A stretch of DNA of 32,000 bases from Eikenella halliae (GTDB lineage Bacteria; Pseudomonadota; Gammaproteobacteria; Burkholderiales; Neisseriaceae): the NCBI RefSeq assembly GCF_001648475.1, contig NZ_LXSQ01000017.1, positions 18,298 to 50,297 of the forward strand, read 5' to 3'. Positions 23,140-29,511 of the stretch are shown piece after piece; the first letter of the stretch is position 1, and every line of letters begins with the position of its first letter. Under the pieces are notes generated by a model. It made no database searches. It worked only from the letters and a program-made list of their open reading frames with translations, and had not been told where the DNA came from. Both the position numbers and the translations under genes were made by a program.

Positions 23140-24420
23140 ACAAACACGGCGGTTTAAAAGCGCAGCAAGAGTAGCAACTGTATTTTTCACCCCGTCGGGC
23201 AAAAATACCAAAACTCAAATCAAGCCGTTTGGATACCGTTTTCGGTGGTACCGTTTTCGGCAAAGTAATCACGCATCCGGGCATTCAATATCGTCAACAG
23301 TTTGCGCATACATGCCGTAACGGCAACCTTATACGGCTTACCCTTGGACAACAGGCGCTGGTAAAAATCCCGAATAAGCGGTTCAAAACGTGTCGCTAAC
23401 ACGGTGGCCATATACAGCGCCTTACGCACCGCAGACCTTCCGCCAAAGCAGCAGCTTTTGAATTTGGTTTCCCCGCTCTCCCTCGGGTGCGGGGCAATAC
23501 CGACCAGACTCGCTATCCGTTTGTGGTTCAGCCGTCCCAATTCGGGCAGCATCGCCATCAGCGTAGCCGTCGTTATCGAACCGATGCCTTTGATTTGTTC
23601 CGCCACTTTGGCTTTGCCGTCAAAATGTGTGTGGGTGTGGTCATTGATTTGTTTGTCCAAGTCGTCAATCAGCCGGTCAAAATGGGCAATCAGTTGTTTG
23701 ACGCTTTCGACTTGCGTTTCGTGAACCTGATGCAGACGGTTTTTCTCGGCCGTCCGCATATCCACCAGCTGGTTGCGGCGGTTGACCAATGCTTCCAACA
23801 CTTCTTCCGCTTCGGTGGGCGGTTGGTAGAGCATGGTTTGCCAACCTTCTTTCTGTGCCGTCATCTGTGCGAAGAAGGCGAGCATTTGGGCATCTTTGGC
23901 ATCGGTTTTGGTCAGCGACTGTGATTGGGCAAACTGATGCGTCTGACGAGGGTTGGCGATGATCACGGCTATGCCTGCGCGGTGGATGGCTTTGGCGGCG
24001 GGGATTTCGAGACCGCCGGTACTTTCCATGGCGACGAGGGCGACCTTGTGTTTTTTAAGGTATTCGACGGTATGGGCGATTCCTTTGGGGTTGTTGGTTT
24101 CGGTTTTGGTTTTAGACAAAGACGAAACGGCGATGACGAAGTTTCGTTTGGCGATGTCGATGCCTGCGTAATTGTGTTGGGTACTCATCATAAACCTGCC
24201 TTGCATTCGGTTGTGTTGTCTGGCAACTGTCCGGTTGTGTCGATGGGTTGCCCGACCGCTCCCTGAGCTACGCAACGGTTGTTTGCCTTGGTCGGATGCG
24301 GGCGGCGGCGGGCGGTTTGTTGCTAGGATACGGAAGTTCCGATATACAAGGTTGGGTTAGCCGCTGGCGTAACCCGACAAATAAAGTGGAATGTTGGGTT
24401 TACCAACCCAACCTACCGAC
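23140..24420 (-). mobile_element. IS110-family insertion sequence (ends approximate)
   Basis: A single transposase ORF with about 80 nt non-coding 3' and about 229 nt non-coding 5' of it. No terminal inverted repeats are evident, as expected for IS110. It lies between the DUS pair at 23102-23128 and the stop of the 24420-24920 gene. Confidence 0.6.
23220..24191 (-). CDS. IS110-family transposase (DEDD recombinase)
   Basis: The N-terminus has AGIDIAK ... VAMESTGG (DEDD/RuvC-like). The C-terminus has IKGIGSITTATLMAMLPELG...IASLVGIAPHPRESGE...RKALYMA (the IS116/IS110/IS902 domain). Start at the tandem ATGs at 24186-24191; the track's longer start is unlikely. Confidence 0.9.
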   Translation of the reverse strand: MMSTQHNYAGIDIAKRNFVIAVSSLSKTKTETNNPKGIAHTVEYLKKHKVALVAMESTGGLEIPAAKAIHRAGIAVIIANPRQTHQFAQSQSLTKTDAKDAQMLAFFAQMTAQKEGWQTMLYQPPTEAEEVLEALVNRRNQLVDMRTAEKNRLHQVHETQVESVKQLIAHFDRLIDDLDKQINDHTHTHFDGKAKVAEQIKGIGSITTATLMAMLPELGRLNHKRIASLVGIAPHPRESGETKFKSCCFGGRSAVRKALYMATVLATRFEPLIRDFYQRLLSKGKPYKVAVTACMRKLLTILNARMRDYFAENGTTENGIQTA

Positions 24421-24920
24421 TACCGACTGCGTCTGCGGTAATCCGTATCGTCATCGCTGTCTTCATCTTCGTCATAATCTTCATACTGATTTTCGCGGCG
24501 CGCCTTCACCACCGTCATGACAATAAAGCCGTATGCCACCAGGGCGGTCAGGAACGATTGCCAAAGGCTGGCGTCCGCCCCGTTTTGGCAGCGGACGCGT
24601 TTGGGGTTGTTCGGCAGATAAAGGCACTCGATATCCTCGCCCGCTTTCAGTTTGTCCAACTCGCCGGTGCTGATGCTGATGTTGTTCACCGTTACCGGCG
24701 TGCCTTCCGCCGTGGTGTAGTTCAAAGACACGGTGTAATACACTCCGCCGCCCCTGCGTTCCCTGTGTTCGGTGTATTCGTTGGTGGCGGGCGTGAACAT
24801 GGCCCTTTGCCCTTTTTCGCGGAATTGGCTGTTTTCCTTCATCGAGTGGAAGCCCATATACAGGAACACTGTGCCAAGCACAAAAGCGAGCACGCAATAT
24901 AAGGTTGACTTTGAATTCAT
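24420..24920 (-). CDS. Small membrane protein, DUF3592-like, with an acidic C-terminal tail
   Basis: 166 aa: an N-terminal TM helix, a central beta-rich segment, a second TM helix, then YEDYDEDEDSDDDTDY. The stop TAG abuts the IS arm. Confidence 0.65.
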   Translation of the reverse strand: MNSKSTLYCVLAFVLGTVFLYMGFHSMKENSQFREKGQRAMFTPATNEYTEHRERRGGGVYYTVSLNYTTAEGTPVTVNNISISTGELDKLKAGEDIECLYLPNNPKRVRCQNGADASLWQSFLTALVAYGFIVMTVVKARRENQYEDYDEDEDSDDDTDYRRRSR

Positions 24921-25024
24921 AAATGATACCTAATTGATTTTTTTAGAAGTTTAAAAGCGCGCGATTATAACAGATTTCGGCACGGCAACAAGTGCAGGCT
25001 GCCTTATTCAAGCCGAATGGGGAA

Positions 25025-25050
25025 AGGCTACCTGAAATTTCAGGTAGCCT
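25025..25050 (-). terminator. Inverted DUS pair, terminator of the rtcB-prfH operon
   Basis: aggctacctgaaatttcaggtagcct lies 19 nt after the prfH stop and is flanked by ggaa/tttcc extensions. Confidence 0.7.
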
Positions 25051-25068
25051 TTCCCATTGCCCGCGCCA

Positions 25069-25683
25069 TCAAGCCTGTTCGCGGAAATCTTCCCCCTTAA
25101 ACACCCGCCTCGGGTTGCCGCGCTCCACTTGGTAGAGCGATTTGTGCGCATCGGCAGCGTGTTGGCGCAGGGCGGTTTGGTGGTGTTCGGCCAGCTTGAG
25201 CGCGAGCAGTTCCAGCGCGCGTTTTTTGTTGGCGTGCTGGCTGCGCTCGCCCTCGGCGCGTACGGCGATGCCGCTGGCAAGGTGGACGGCGCGCACGGCG
25301 GATTCGGTTTTGTTCACGTGCTGCCCGCCTTTGCCGCCGGCGCGGCAGGTTTGGAATTCGATGCCTTCGTTTTCCGGCAGCACGGGAATTTCAGGTAGCC
25401 TGAACACGCCGATATACCAGTTTTTGCGCGGGTGCTGCGGCCGCAGCGGGCTGGGGCACACCCATTGCAGCGTGCCCTGCCAGCTTGCGGCCAGGCTTTC
25501 GGCACGGCTGCCGGAGAGCTTGAGCACGGCGGAGAGGATGCCGTGTTTGCTCGGGGTTTGTTCCAATATTTCGGCCGCCACGCCAGCCGCTTCGGCCTCG
25601 CACAGGATTTTTTGCAGGGCAAAACGGGCAAACATCTGGCATTCGGCCGGGCCTTGGGCGGTGGAAATTTGCAGATAAATCAT
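25069..25683 (-). CDS. prfH: Peptide chain release factor H (RF-H)
   Basis: 204 aa and collinear with E. coli PrfH: STAQGPAEC, LQWVCPSPLRP, RKNW, GGKGGQHVNKTESAVRAVHLASGI, ERSQHANK, ERGNPRRVF. Lacks RF domain 1. Confidence 0.92.
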   Translation of the reverse strand: MIYLQISTAQGPAECQMFARFALQKILCEAEAAGVAAEILEQTPSKHGILSAVLKLSGSRAESLAASWQGTLQWVCPSPLRPQHPRKNWYIGVFRLPEIPVLPENEGIEFQTCRAGGKGGQHVNKTESAVRAVHLASGIAVRAEGERSQHANKKRALELLALKLAEHHQTALRQHAADAHKSLYQVERGNPRRVFKGEDFREQA

Positions 25684-25686
25684 GGT

Positions 25687-26352
25687 TTACTTCCTTTTCA
25701 TCTTTGGCCGGAACAAATGCTTGGCATCGAAGCCTTTGTTGCCGATTTTGTCTTGGTCGGGCACGCTCGGGCTGGTTTCGGCCTCGTTTTTGAGCTGCGA
25801 GAGGTATGCGCAAAGGTGTTGCCACACGATATCGGGGTCAATGTAGATACCGAGTGCGGAGAGCTGGGGGTTGGCGTAATAGGCAAACCTGCCTTCCTGC
25901 CAGCTGCGCAATCCGGTTTCGCACTCCAGCAGCAGCGGCGCGGCGGGCAATTCCTCCCGCGAGACTACGGTTTCGGCCTGGAATTTTTCGTTTGCACTCA
26001 ATAAGTAGTCTCCATATTGCGGCAGGCAATATTCGCCGCCGTCGTGAAAACGGATTTGGGGGTAAATATCCCGGCCGGGATGCGACGGGCGGCGGATCAC
26101 CTCGGCCACGTCGAACGAGGTGTAAACGCGCGCGCCCGTGTTGAACAAATACACGCGCAGCCTGCCCACATACAGCGCCGACATGGTCACGCACGCGCCG
26201 TATTCCTTCTCCCACCCGGCGGGCGGCTCGGGCAGGCCGTGCGGGATTTCGGCATCCGGGCTCTGGCGGCGGTCGAACACCAGCACGGGGTCGATGCCGT
26301 ATTTGGCTACTTTGTGGTCGTAAAAGTCTTTAAATTTACTGATGATTTTCAC
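25687..26352 (-). CDS. Unknown protein X' (paralog of 26357-27052) inside the rtcB-prfH operon
   Basis: 221 aa with a GTG start and AAGGAAA upstream. It starts 4 nt after the previous stop, and its TAA lies 3 nt before the prfH ATG. No recognisable motif. The C-terminus is basic (FRPKMKRK). Confidence 0.8.
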   Translation of the reverse strand: MKIISKFKDFYDHKVAKYGIDPVLVFDRRQSPDAEIPHGLPEPPAGWEKEYGACVTMSALYVGRLRVYLFNTGARVYTSFDVAEVIRRPSHPGRDIYPQIRFHDGGEYCLPQYGDYLLSANEKFQAETVVSREELPAAPLLLECETGLRSWQEGRFAYYANPQLSALGIYIDPDIVWQHLCAYLSQLKNEAETSPSVPDQDKIGNKGFDAKHLFRPKMKRK

Positions 26353-26356
26353 GGCA

Positions 26357-27052
26357 TCATTTCCTTTTCATTTTCGGCCGGAACGAATACTTGGCATCAA
26401 AGCCTTTGTTGCCGATTTTGTCTTGGTCGGGCACGGGCGGGCTGGTTTCGGCCTCGCTTTTGAGTTGCGAGAGGTATTCGCAAAGGTGCTGCCACACGAT
26501 ATCGGGGTCGATATACACGCCGAGGCCGGAGAGTTGCGGGTTTTCGGCAAAACTTTGGCGGCTGTTGAGCCGGGTGGGCCGGTTTGGGTCGGCGTAATAG
26601 GCGAGCAGCAGCGGCATATGGCGGTATTTGGCGATGATGGGATGGCTACGGCTGCAGCGGCGGGGGCTGAAGTCGGGCGTTTGGCTGTGGCGATACCCCG
26701 GCCAGTAGTAATTATGGCATTGCGGCAGGCAGTATTCGCTGCCGTCGAGGAAGCGCACCATGCTCAAGGGAAATCGGTGGCGGCGGTGTTGCAGATACAC
26801 GGTATCAATGTCGTATGAGCTGTACACCTGCTTCTCGACGGCAAACAGGAACACGCGCAGATTGCCGATATACAGCTCGGACACCACGGCGCACGCGCCG
26901 TATTCCTTCTCCCACTCGGCAGGCGGCTTAGGTAGGCTGCGCAGGATTTCAGCATCTGGCGGTTGGCGGCGGTCAAAAACCAGCACGGGGTCGATGCCGT
27001 ATTTGGCCACTTTGTGATCGTAAAAATCTTTAAATTTACTGATGATTTTCAT
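26357..27052 (-). CDS. Unknown protein X (paralog of 25687-26352) inside the rtcB-prfH operon
   Basis: 231 aa with an ATG 4 nt after the rtcB stop and GGGGAG upstream. The first 30 aa are identical to X'. No recognisable motif. Confidence 0.8.
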   Translation of the reverse strand: MKIISKFKDFYDHKVAKYGIDPVLVFDRRQPPDAEILRSLPKPPAEWEKEYGACAVVSELYIGNLRVFLFAVEKQVYSSYDIDTVYLQHRRHRFPLSMVRFLDGSEYCLPQCHNYYWPGYRHSQTPDFSPRRCSRSHPIIAKYRHMPLLLAYYADPNRPTRLNSRQSFAENPQLSGLGVYIDPDIVWQHLCEYLSQLKSEAETSPPVPDQDKIGNKGFDAKYSFRPKMKRK

Positions 27053-27056
27053 GCCA

Positions 27057-28196
27057 TCACTCCCCGCAGCCGCCGTTGGTTTTGTAGGTGAGCACCGGCT
27101 TGAGGCGGGCTATCGGCTCGATCAGGCCGGTCTGCCGCATGGCTTCGATGATGCTGTCGATGTTTTTGTAGGCCTGAGGGGCTTCTTCAAAAATCAAGGC
27201 TTTGTCGGCGCACACCACGATGCTGCCGAAAGTGGTGCGGCGCAGGCTGTCGGCACTGTATTTGTGCGACAGGCGGCCTTTGCATTCGCCGCGCTGCCAT
27301 TTCCGCCCCGCACCGTGGGCGAGCGAATTGAGGGAGACCGTGCAATCAGCGGCCGGTTCGACTAAATAGCTGTAGTCGCCGCGCGAGCCGGGAATCAGCA
27401 CCAGGCCGCAGTCGGACGGGGTGGCGCCTTTGCGGTGCAGCCAGCCGGTTTCGCCGCCGATTTCGGTGTGCTGCAGGAAGTTGTGGTGCACATCGAGCAG
27501 GCGGCGACCTTCGGCATGCCACCGCTCAAACATGCGCTCGGCAATCAGCAGGCGGTTGGCGCAGGCAAAGGTCAGCGCATCGTCGTGTTCGGCCAGGTAG
27601 GCGGCGGCCTCGGGGCTGTTTTCAGGTAGCCCTTGATGGCCGTGCGCGTCCACATGGCGGCGCAAAACCTGCTGGCCGAGCCCGCGCGAGCCGCTGTGCA
27701 CGAACAGTTGCAGGCAGTCGGTATTGAAGTTTTCAGGTAGCCTTTCGGGGCGGTAAACAGTATCTACGGTTTGCAGCTCGGCAAAATGGTTGCCGCCGCC
27801 GATGGTGCCTAAGGCTACCTGAAAAGGATGCTGCGGCAGGATGCCGTTAATCCGTACCTGCCAGCTTTCATTCAGCGGCGCATCAATGCTACCGAGCTGT
27901 TTGGCCAACTTGGCGGGTTTGGCTTTGTGTGCAGGCAAATCGGTTTGCCACAGCGCCATGCCGCAGCCGATGTCGTTGCCGATGAGCGCGGGATAAAAAC
28001 GGCCGAGGCTGAAAAATGCCGCGCCGATGGGATAACCGCGCCCGGCGTGCAAATCGGGCATACCGGCCACCCGGCGCATCTGCGGCAGGCGGGCGGTGGT
28101 TTGGAGTTGTTGGACGGCGTTGCCTTCAATCCAGGTGTTTGAATCGGCTATTAAAACAATGTTTTCAGAAATGATTTGGGGATTTTGTGTGCCCAT
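27057..28196 (-). CDS. rtcB: RtcB-family RNA 3'-phosphate ligase (RtcB2-type, PrfH-associated)
   Basis: MPDLHAGRGYPIGAAF, GNDIGCGM, GGGNHFAE, HSGSRGLG, and HNF...HRKGAT are all RtcB signature blocks. I place the start at the ATG at 28194-28196 (MGTQNPQ). The track start at 28283 adds 29 non-conserved residues. Confidence 0.92.
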   Translation of the reverse strand: MGTQNPQIISENIVLIADSNTWIEGNAVQQLQTTARLPQMRRVAGMPDLHAGRGYPIGAAFFSLGRFYPALIGNDIGCGMALWQTDLPAHKAKPAKLAKQLGSIDAPLNESWQVRINGILPQHPFQVALGTIGGGNHFAELQTVDTVYRPERLPENFNTDCLQLFVHSGSRGLGQQVLRRHVDAHGHQGLPENSPEAAAYLAEHDDALTFACANRLLIAERMFERWHAEGRRLLDVHHNFLQHTEIGGETGWLHRKGATPSDCGLVLIPGSRGDYSYLVEPAADCTVSLNSLAHGAGRKWQRGECKGRLSHKYSADSLRRTTFGSIVVCADKALIFEEAPQAYKNIDSIIEAMRQTGLIEPIARLKPVLTYKTNGGCGE

Positions 28197-28584
28197 AATG
28201 TACTTTCTTGCGGCGGATAAATCCGTTTGCGCACGGCTCTGCCAAGCACGCGTAAACGCGGCGGCAACAGCTCGAAACGGCAAATAAATTTATCCGCAGA
28301 ATGCAAACAGCAGGCGCGGCAAAGCAGCGCATCAAATGCAGTTTGTAAAATAGGGAGAAAGCAGCCCGAAGCGGGCGGCACAGAAAAAGGGAATGGCCTT
28401 AGGCTTCTGAGCTGCAAAGGATTGAGCGGAGGATTGAAGTGTACGGCATAGCCAGCTCCTTTCTTTGCAGTGGTGAATGAATCATGAAAACCCGCGCATA
28501 GTAGCGGCCGGATACCGGCTGCGGCAAGTGCACGGCAGAAAAGGCGGGAGGATTGTTGTATTTTTCCCGCACCATACCAGGTGT

Positions 28585-28630
28585 AGAAAACAATAAAAAC
28601 CGGCTGTCTAATCCATCAGACAGCCGGTTT
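28585..28630 (-). terminator. Rho-independent terminator (not DUS-based)
   Basis: aaaccggctgtct-aatccatc-agacagccggttt is a 13-bp perfect stem. On the minus strand it is followed by ttattgtttt. It lies 13 nt after the stop of the 28643 gene. Confidence 0.7.
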
Positions 28631-28642
28631 CGAATATGGCAA

Positions 28643-28999
28643 TTAGCCCAAGTTGCGTTCGGCGTTAATCAGGGAACGGCGAGCCAGAGCCAAGTTGGCT
28701 TTGCTTTTATCCAATACAGAATACAGGAAGAGGCCGTCATGACGCGGCAGCGGGCGCAGCAGGTGGTACTGGGTGCCCAAAGTCATCAAAATGTCTTCAA
28801 CTTCATCCTTCAAACCAAGCATCTGCATGGTTTTCTTTTTGGCACGAATTACCTCAGTGTTACCTGCGGCAGCAATTTCCAAATCGATTGAGGGGCTGCC
28901 GCCGCCGGCCAACAACATGCCGCTGGAGTAATCCACGACTGCGGCAGCCAGAGCGCCATCCACGTTCAACATTTCCGCTACGGTTTTATCGTAATTCAT
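28643..28999 (-). CDS. Small cytoplasmic protein, Roadblock/LC7 (MglB-like) fold suspected
   Basis: 118 aa from the ATG at 28997-28999 (a GTG alternative lies at 29017). The pattern VDGALAAAVVDYSSGMLLA...DILMTLGTQYHLLRPL...LFLYSVLD resembles Roadblock/LC7 proteins. The family call is tentative. Confidence 0.6.
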   Translation of the reverse strand: MNYDKTVAEMLNVDGALAAAVVDYSSGMLLAGGGSPSIDLEIAAAGNTEVIRAKKKTMQMLGLKDEVEDILMTLGTQYHLLRPLPRHDGLFLYSVLDKSKANLALARRSLINAERNLG

Positions 29000-29511
29000 T
29001 TTCGACAAGATCTCCACAAAAACAAAATAAAAACAAATAATTTAAGCTTCCCGAAACCAATTCATACTCTCTACTTTGTAACTCAGGAAGGTTTGGCAGG
29101 CTTTATTATCCAAACAACATCGCCCACTTCTATTAGTGAGTTGGACTAGGCAGCTGGCTGAAAAAGCTTTTCCGCCCTGCCCAACGCTGAATCGCAGTAT
29201 ATGCCTTTTGCTTTTCAAAGTAAATATTAACACCGACATAATTGTATGTATTTGATGCATGACAATTTCGGGCACACCCACCTTGGCATCATAATATGCT
29301 TGTTTTTTATCCCATAAAGCCAAAACTGCCCATACGTTTGCCACCGTCAAACACTGCCCGGACAGCCTATCTTTTACACGACATAACCGTTTTTCCAGCC
29401 CGTCCCACTCCCCATCCGCCACTCCCCCATCTCTACCCTAGCACGGCAAAGAAGACCTTTGCACCATGCAGGCTTATAATTCCGCTTTCCTTCTTTTTCA
29501 GGTAGCCTCAC

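Follow-up and report, generated by a model that had tools for sequence, protein, structure and literature searches.

An rtcB-prfH operon in Eikenella split by two putative allelic types of an optional, mobile accessory gene

RtcB-PrfH is, to our knowledge, the only system known both to rescue and to repair ribosomes that have been cut by ribotoxins. Its genes have been published as a two-gene operon, rtcB2-prfH (PMC1586002, PMC9304027, PMC9223846, PMC12829566, PMC13166195), and in the operons described in the literature and in Ralstonia annotations the two genes are adjacent or overlapping. The 32-kb window analyzed here, a stretch of the Eikenella halliae genome (contig NZ_LXSQ01000017.1), contains the same subfamilies as the RtcB2-PrfH operon of E. 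coli ATCC 25922, in the same order (rtcB then prfH), on one strand and coupled; unlike the described operons, it holds two extra genes, here named X and X', between them. The 1,370 bp that separate rtcB from prfH are filled by these two genes, so the direct adjacency that defines the two-gene module is absent here. The locus is a new variant of the known rtcB-prfH module that carries members of an undescribed family. We found no mention in the literature of a third gene in an rtcB-prfH operon or of the X family, and the initial impression that no rtcB-X-X'-prfH version had been described thus holds. To judge from comparison of their homologs, X and X' represent a single accessory gene, facultative and horizontally mobile, in two allelic types. 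Purifying selection acts on this optional, mobile gene, its center is variable, and most of its homologs are located away from rtcB and prfH. In Eikenella it has the look of a conflict or immunity-type gene that was captured, rather than of a set component of repair.

All four genes lie on the minus strand. The first, rtcB (27057-28196, ATG start, 379 aa), encodes a ligase of the PrfH-associated subfamily (RtcB2 type), with a TIGR03073 (release_rtcB) score of 541.7 bits, well over the curated cut-off of 271.8, and a PF01139 match at E 1.3e-71. It is followed by X (26357-27052, ATG start, 231 aa), X' (25687-26352, GTG start, 221 aa), and prfH (25069-25683, ATG start, 204 aa), which encodes peptide chain release factor H (TIGR03072, release_prfH, 237.7 bits over a cut-off of 166.65; PF00472, E 4.5e-24). 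The PrfH protein contains GGQ within the segment AGGKGGQHVNK and, at 204 aa, has the form of the equivalog that lacks release factor domain 1. The identities that the sequence-only reading of this DNA had given to rtcB and prfH are therefore confirmed, and the junctions read exactly as it had described them: successive gaps of 4, 4 and 3 nt (rtcB TGA-tggc-ATG X; X TGA-tgcc-GTG X'; X' TAA-acc-ATG prfH), with Shine-Dalgarno-like purine runs (GGGGAG, AAGGAAA and AAGGAAG) located 6-10 nt 5' of the three internal starts, each within the preceding gene. A site scan of the window found neither a promoter-like site nor a strong terminator between the four genes, and the GC content at third codon positions (GC3) is even over all of them (0.72-0.75).

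The X and X' proteins are 58% identical, with the first ~60 and last ~60 residues almost alike and a diverged center. At the DNA level the two genes share 26-29 matches per 30 nt at the ends versus 9-16 in the center, and the C-terminal sequence FRPKMKRK is common to both. Their best protein matches come from Eikenella corrodens and other Eikenella. Neither protein has a credible match in Pfam, NCBIfam or PADLOC, which bears out the earlier description of two paralogs with a shared basic tail and no recognizable motif. Among profile searches, only phrog_4243 was matched: X residues 1-228 align to positions 1-231 of the 232 positions of its hidden Markov model (HMM) at E 2.6e-12, and X' matches the same HMM at E 1.5e-10. 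This PHROGs v4 family of unknown function (e.g. Cellulophaga phage phi4:1 gp021; 23% identity over 98% of X by tblastn) has phage copies that lie among replication and nucleotide-metabolism genes and, unlike X of the window, have neither rtcB nor prfH close by. Searched with a profile, 1.84 billion representative proteins yielded a family of 5,696 clusters (50% identity) at E <= 1e-3, of which 1,956 are found at E <= 1e-10. A Pfam search of 107 diverse members returned no match, including none to Imm, SUKH, SuFu or ankyrin families, and no Pfam match to archease, the known RtcB cofactor, was found in X, X' or these 107 relatives.

To place the family in its genomic contexts, we used a pattern-plus-tblastn scan of one genome per species, which gave 80 loci; rtcB and prfH were located in them by tblastn, and all neighboring open reading frames (ORFs) were clustered. 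X homologs stand between rtcB and prfH in 18 of the 80 loci and elsewhere in the remaining 62. The sequence-only reading had taken X and X' for extra components of the repair pathway, and had held that homologs found mostly away from rtcB and prfH would speak against this; most are indeed not between the two genes, and together with the X-less operons described below (24 of 47) this leaves that claim unsupported. The 18 rtcB-X-prfH loci belong to Eikenella, Neisseria, Kingella and Alysiella, plus Dentiradicibacter and a 'Propionivibrio' metagenome-assembled genome (MAG). In the latter two, RtcB is 87% identical to that of the window, and the carriers of rtcB-X-prfH are all Neisseriaceae or recent recipients of the operon. 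Four further loci in Neisseria, Kingella and Cardiobacterium have X alone amid housekeeping genes (gloB-like, MFS, PHP and pepN, proS-truD), and a weak Imm10-like gene neighbors X in Kingella.

Beyond these genera, X homologs keep different company. Thirty loci in oral Campylobacter fall at two fixed sites, one of them directly 3' of a peptidase S49 gene, where X and a DUF4299 gene face each other. Eight loci in Fusobacterium (plus L084) carry one to four tandem copies in a cobalamin operon, where cbiC and cbiD flank them and DUF4299 genes are near; DUF4299 has been found in the effector/immunity variable region of a type VI secretion system of C. jejuni (PMC8285248). The tandem paralogs in Fusobacterium (L030, L040, L044-L048, L060 and L084) overlap stop to start between cbiC and GrpB/cbiD, and the DUF4299 genes are inserted elsewhere in the same cobalamin operon. 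Leptotrichia and Sutterella provide one locus each in other contexts. The 18 loci from Capnocytophaga and other Flavobacteriaceae are long same-strand arrays, 17 of them with ankyrin, SMI1_KNR4/SUKH, SUKH-3/-6 or DUF4272 genes; SUKH and ankyrin are recognized as superfamilies of immunity proteins in polymorphic toxin systems (PMC3482391). Three of the Flavobacteriaceae arrays begin with an RtcB gene. In an oral Flavobacteriaceae MAG (L032, 1-3400), the stretch from prfH to rtcB holds a SUKH-like gene with a frameshift, one unknown ORF and a DUF4304 gene, and an Ank-SUKH-DUF4272-X array lies 3' of rtcB, with the X copy 2.6 kb downstream. This arrangement parallels the split operon in a second phylum, and its prfH carries a C-terminal basic tail as described for Capnocytophaga PrfH (PMC12829566). 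In the Capnocytophaga loci (L023-L038), an unknown gene of ~205 aa (family f14) is always found directly 3' of X; its N-terminus resembles, by eye, the UBA-like N-terminal domain of EF-Ts, and it has no Pfam or NCBIfam match.

X homologs were also found on 29 viral contigs, many of them 100-600 kb in length, and none of these 29 loci has rtcB or prfH near the X homolog. The viral neighbors are mostly small unknown ORFs and nucleotide-metabolism genes. Across viral and phage loci they include ribonucleotide reductase, Thy1, DHFR, dUTPase, NUDIX, NAPRTase, Tpt1 (once among the viral contigs), Thg1, CCA-adding enzyme and RlaP. On one further phage-like contig (L186, 1470-2132), the X homolog lies 1-5 kb from a tRNA-repair set of NUDIX, CCA-adding-type nucleotidyltransferase, Thg1 and RlaP genes, and on a 393-kb jumbo-phage contig (L189, 9001-9675) it stands two genes after the anti-defense gene Gad2. 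A plasmid search for X returned only one mis-filed Fusobacterium chromosome, and X is therefore taken not to be plasmid-borne.

Within the close relatives of the Eikenella operon, X is optional and not a fixed part. A PrfH-anchored metagenome scan gave 60 loci with PrfH 46-97% identical to that of the window, 47 of which contain both rtcB and prfH. X lies between the two genes in 23 of these 47, with two copies in two of them (both Eikenella corrodens-like) and a few disrupted; the other 24 have no X, and their spacers of only 11-111 bp usually hold an uptake sequence. The presence of X is patchy on a neighbor-joining tree of RtcB and PrfH, where the X-less operon L137 nests among X-bearing Neisseria, the X-bearing operons L022 and L156 fall among X-less Kingella-type operons, and X-type and X'-type operons are intermixed. 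At several Kingella, Neisseria and Alysiella loci (L018, L019, L020/L176, L021 and L022/L156), X stands between direct repeats of the uptake sequence in the dialect of its host, 3-25 nt from its start and stop, and empty sites (L143-L151, L020/L019) have a single copy of the uptake sequence. In L156 and L022 the repeated sequence is precisely the one seen in the spacers of X-less operons. Borders of this kind suggest that X may be gained, or precisely lost, by recombination at uptake sequences. The X and X' junctions of the window, at 3-4 nt, are free of uptake sequences. Decayed copies are found as well among Eikenella and metagenome proteins: a deletion that fuses the N-terminal half of RtcB to the middle of X (P0072), a 'mini-X' in which the conserved N- and C-termini are joined directly (P0112), a QueF-like protein that ends in the X C-terminus (P0111), and a frameshifted E. 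corrodens allele (P0030). The rtcB-X-prfH unit is kept over four genera (Eikenella, Neisseria, Kingella and Alysiella), even as the identity of X falls to 43-47%.

The center of the protein varies by type. Comparison of operons and typing of their copies, together with the drop in DNA identity, place a variable central cassette at ~aa 66-170 in X (26543-26857, minus strand) and at ~aa 66-160 in X' (25873-26157, minus strand). Two operons (L129 and L133) illustrate the pattern, being 95-100% identical in 100-bp windows across rtcB, prfH and the ends of X and only 45-47% identical over a central ~300 bp of X. When 39 operon-embedded copies are compared in pairs, residues 1-65 and 171-231 average 79% and 78% identity, respectively, whereas residues 111-170 average 37%, and at least six central types can be distinguished. 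X of the window represents the commonest central type (23 copies) and X' the second (10 copies). Since Neisseria elongata-like operons (L013, L133-L136, L146) have the X' type on its own, E. corrodens has stacked two pre-existing types rather than merely duplicated one. Because rtcB and prfH stay unchanged when the type switches, the partner of the variable center is unlikely to be RtcB or PrfH. Pairwise ratios of nonsynonymous to synonymous substitution (dN/dS) for X are 0.0-0.3 for the gene, and by segment 0.0-0.1 at the N-terminus, 0.1-0.4 in the center and 0.05-0.4 at the C-terminus, and those for X' are 0.2-0.9, on few substitutions. Positive selection was not seen in either gene, as pairwise dN/dS is below 1 in every segment, and purifying selection on both indicates that X and X' are real genes.

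The fold of the X family is apparently unsolved. An AlphaFold2 model of X, built with a 107-sequence alignment, has a predicted local distance difference test score (pLDDT) of 90.8 and a predicted template-modeling score (pTM) of 0.84, with both termini well ordered (pLDDT >90). Foldseek searches of the PDB with two models found no relative (best E ~0.06, template-modeling score 0.15), and a search of viral models with the first of them gave a homolog in Cellulophaga phage phi17:2 as the sole match (E 2.9e-5). The profile and structure searches that had been proposed for these proteins thus led to phrog_4243 and to no relative in the PDB. In a profile search of PDB sequences, the only hit was a 30-residue resemblance to uL5, which is not significant (E 0.15); the eukaryotic/archaeal uL5-like segment corresponds to X residues 11-30 (~26963-27022), with the motif YD..(V/G).YG.D..LV.DRR. 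Residues Y11, D12, G19, R28, F224 and R225 are invariant across phyla, and I3, S5, K8, D9, D21, P147, L174, G217, F218, D219, K221 and S223 are nearly so. Members of the family are cytoplasmic, have no hydrophobic segment and are mildly basic (median pI, isoelectric point, 8.6). Alignment of the X profile with 31 neighbor families by hhalign revealed no relationship (probabilities <=2.5%). Three candidate identities were rejected: MdcG_N for X' is a chance-level Pfam match under the cut-off (E 0.17); the SWIM zinc-finger label of one UniRef homolog depends on a C-x-x-x-C-H of X that is missing in X' and not conserved; and a homing endonuclease or transposase would have motifs that X lacks, while the borders consist of host uptake sequences and not of element-specific repeats.

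The uptake sequence of the window itself is the 12-mer AGGCTACCTGAA, present in 53 copies over the 32 kb versus 0 expected, often as inverted pairs 3' of genes. We take it to be the Eikenella dialect of the neisserial DNA uptake sequence, a dialect reportedly described by Frye et al. in 2013. Related dialects are AG-kingDUS (AGGCAGCCTGAA) and AG-simDUS (PMC7371117). Two copies are found in rtcB, one in prfH and none in X or X'; copies in the window lie, for example, at 25390-25401, 27732-27743 and 27812-27823. Directly 3' of prfH, two exact matches in opposite orientation (25025-25036, plus; 25039-25050, minus) form an unstranded inverted pair at 25025-25050, a hairpin and the likely end of the operon, which the terminator scan did not list because it has no T-run. 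On the other side, the intrinsic terminator of a Roadblock/LC7-like gene (28596-28631, minus strand; 16-bp stem, 4-nt loop, T-run) marks the upstream limit of the unit, so that hairpins bracket it at both ends, as first read. A leader of ~400 nt (28197-28595, minus strand) extends from this terminator to the rtcB start; a promoter scan of the leader found no sigma-70-like site, and an Rfam search of 24000-29500 gave no match. The upstream gene (28643-29017) has a weak match to PF03259. Just downstream of the operon lie genes for a DUF3592 membrane protein (24420-24920, minus) and an IS110-family transposase (PF01548 and PF02371; 23220-24275, minus).

That X is a conflict protein which adds a second layer of defense against RNA-targeting toxins seems to us a real possibility, somewhat short of probable. 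A conflict gene is suggested by the immunity-type arrays, the DUF4299, Gad2 and RNA-repair neighbors, the tandem diverged copies, the allelic types, the frequent decay of copies and the spread within the oral niche. Among the nearest described systems are the orphan immunity-gene arrays of polymorphic toxin systems (Imm-SUKH, Imm-ank and others; PMC3482391), to which X is alike in its place in the SUKH/ankyrin/DUF4272 arrays of Capnocytophaga, its tandem diverged paralogs, its variable center exchanged between strains, the shared oral niche and the existence of phage copies. X shows some of the traits of immunity genes, namely occurrence in arrays with other immunity genes, polymorphism and exchange. 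It is unlike them in having no Imm similarity, no cognate toxin found alongside, a basic protein, and strongly conserved termini with many invariant polar residues. Capture into an operon with no known role but to undo ribotoxin damage suggests a complementary role, in which X would neutralize the toxin or shield its target. Neisseriaceae may have captured, or retained, X in the rtcB-prfH intergenic site, where its translation would be from a transcript shared with the genes for ribosome rescue and repair, and Eikenella corrodens-like genomes have stacked two types in tandem. The conserved termini (N ~65 aa, C ~60 aa) would form a constant core, the variable center would set which toxin or target is recognized, and RtcB and PrfH would repair the damage that gets past X; X would not be a core step of the RtcB-PrfH reaction. 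A looser link, through a shared role of X and rtcB-prfH in defense against RNA-targeting toxins, is plausible because the unit has been inherited and transferred together across several genera and because prfH and rtcB in the Flavobacteriaceae MAG are interleaved with immunity-type genes.

Several observations weigh against a conflict protein. No X homolog lies directly beside a recognizable toxin gene in the loci examined, and a Pfam scan of sampled neighbors (Capnocytophaga, Kingella, Cardiobacterium, Neisseria, Leptotrichia and Campylobacter) found no toxin domain. X is not homologous to its neighbors, nor to any Imm family. Classical nuclease immunity proteins tend to be acidic, and the X family is mildly basic, with its median pI of 8.6. 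About eleven invariant or nearly invariant residues are polar (S5, K8, D9, Y11, D12, D21, R28, D219, K221, S223 and R225), and such conservation has more the look of an active site, or of a conserved site for a ligand, than of a mere scaffold. With a dN/dS of 0.1-0.4 in the center, below 1, central variability reflects old exchanged types and not demonstrable positive selection. Phage neighborhoods consist mostly of nucleotide-metabolism genes, and the association with rtcB-prfH in Neisseriaceae could in part be an uptake-sequence hotspot in the spacer. It is because of the missing adjacent toxin, the lack of Imm homology, the basic protein and the enzyme-like invariant residues that we stop short of calling a conflict role probable. 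A more specific form of it, which we regard as speculative and unlikely as it stands, is that the X family comprises new, widespread protective factors of unsolved fold, whose constant core would dock to a universal RNA target (e.g. the ribosomal decoding region) and whose exchangeable center would block or recognize ribonuclease toxins. Together with PrfH for rescue and RtcB for re-ligation, such a factor would make up a three-layer defense of 'shield, release, repair', and the phage copies would counter RNA-cleaving host defenses.

The mobility of X would also be explained if it were a hitchhiking cassette with no relation to ribotoxins, such as a phage-derived moron or a superinfection-exclusion or anti-defense factor, that lands at uptake sequences or in permissive spacers, the rtcB-prfH spacer being one of them. 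The direct uptake-sequence repeats around the cassette and the single copy at empty sites speak for this, and X does occur within unrelated operons and sites (the Fusobacterium cobalamin operon, the Campylobacter peptidase S49 site, and beside proS-truD, an MFS gene and pepN in Cardiobacterium and Kingella); the phrog_4243 match, the 100-600 kb phage contigs and the Gad2 neighbor on one of the phage contigs do so too. Minimal mobile elements of Neisseria, a term associated with Saunders and Snyder, are said to be gene cassettes swapped between conserved flanks by transformation. X is similar in its presence or absence and its allelic replacement between rtcB and prfH flanks, with uptake sequences at the borders, and different in being a single small gene with, in the window, tight junctions free of uptake sequences. 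However, 18 of the 21 Neisseriaceae X loci share one spacer, a number beyond what one would expect of a random hotspot, and the junctions in that spacer vary in kind, some being tight and others 40-140 nt long with uptake sequences. GC3 is fully host-adapted and selection is purifying, from which it follows that X is kept for the benefit of the host, and a second phylum again has X in the vicinity of rtcB and prfH. We therefore consider a mere hitchhiker unlikely.

We are similarly doubtful that X and X' are dedicated components of RtcB-PrfH, acting through their conserved termini as a sensor or adaptor for damaged ribosomes or as a regulator of the ligase. The tight translational coupling across gaps of 3-4 nt speaks for such a role, as does the persistence of the three-gene unit over four genera despite the divergence of X, and rtcB-X-prfH has also moved as a unit (L003, L016). 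A basic family with a Lys/Arg tail is compatible with RNA or ribosome binding, the weak, non-significant uL5 likeness at the N-terminus (E 0.15) would point the same way, and one phage-like contig sets the homolog among tRNA-repair enzymes. Yet neither the viral homologs found nor 62 of the 80 genomic ones are located with rtcB and prfH, 24 of the 47 close operons do without X, and the two-gene system of E. coli suffices for rescue and repair (PMC9304027, PMC9223846). The central type switches while rtcB and prfH remain constant, and X copies often decay. Least likely of all is a role for X as a new-fold enzyme whose substrates would be nucleotides or RNA ends (e.g. in end healing, end modification or NAD/ADP-ribose-linked chemistry), with the center as a surface insert. 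In its favor, many invariant charged and polar residues cluster in the two conserved termini, the predicted fold is compact and of high confidence (termini pLDDT >90), and phage neighbors include nucleotide-metabolism and RNA-repair genes. Against it, searches gave neither a known catalytic motif nor a match in fold, 2',3'-cyclic phosphate and 5'-OH ends require no healing before RtcB can act on them, and allelic swapping of a 100-residue center would be unusual for a housekeeping-type enzyme.

Although the stronger claim of a four-component repair pathway is unsupported, which tempers the interest of the locus, about half of the sampled Neisseriaceae versions of rtcB-prfH carry an extra, predicted co-translated gene with a variable center. 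The family to which this gene belongs comprises ~5,700 clusters and has no Pfam model and no solved relative; its size, its apparently unsolved fold and its naturally competent hosts, which make the question testable, are what give it interest. If X does not act in toxin defense, it still illustrates cleanly how a single-gene cassette travels, between uptake repeats, through the transformable bacteria of the mouth. If X does act in toxin defense, it would represent a new immunity-like family, and neutralization and repair would prove to have been assembled in single operons.

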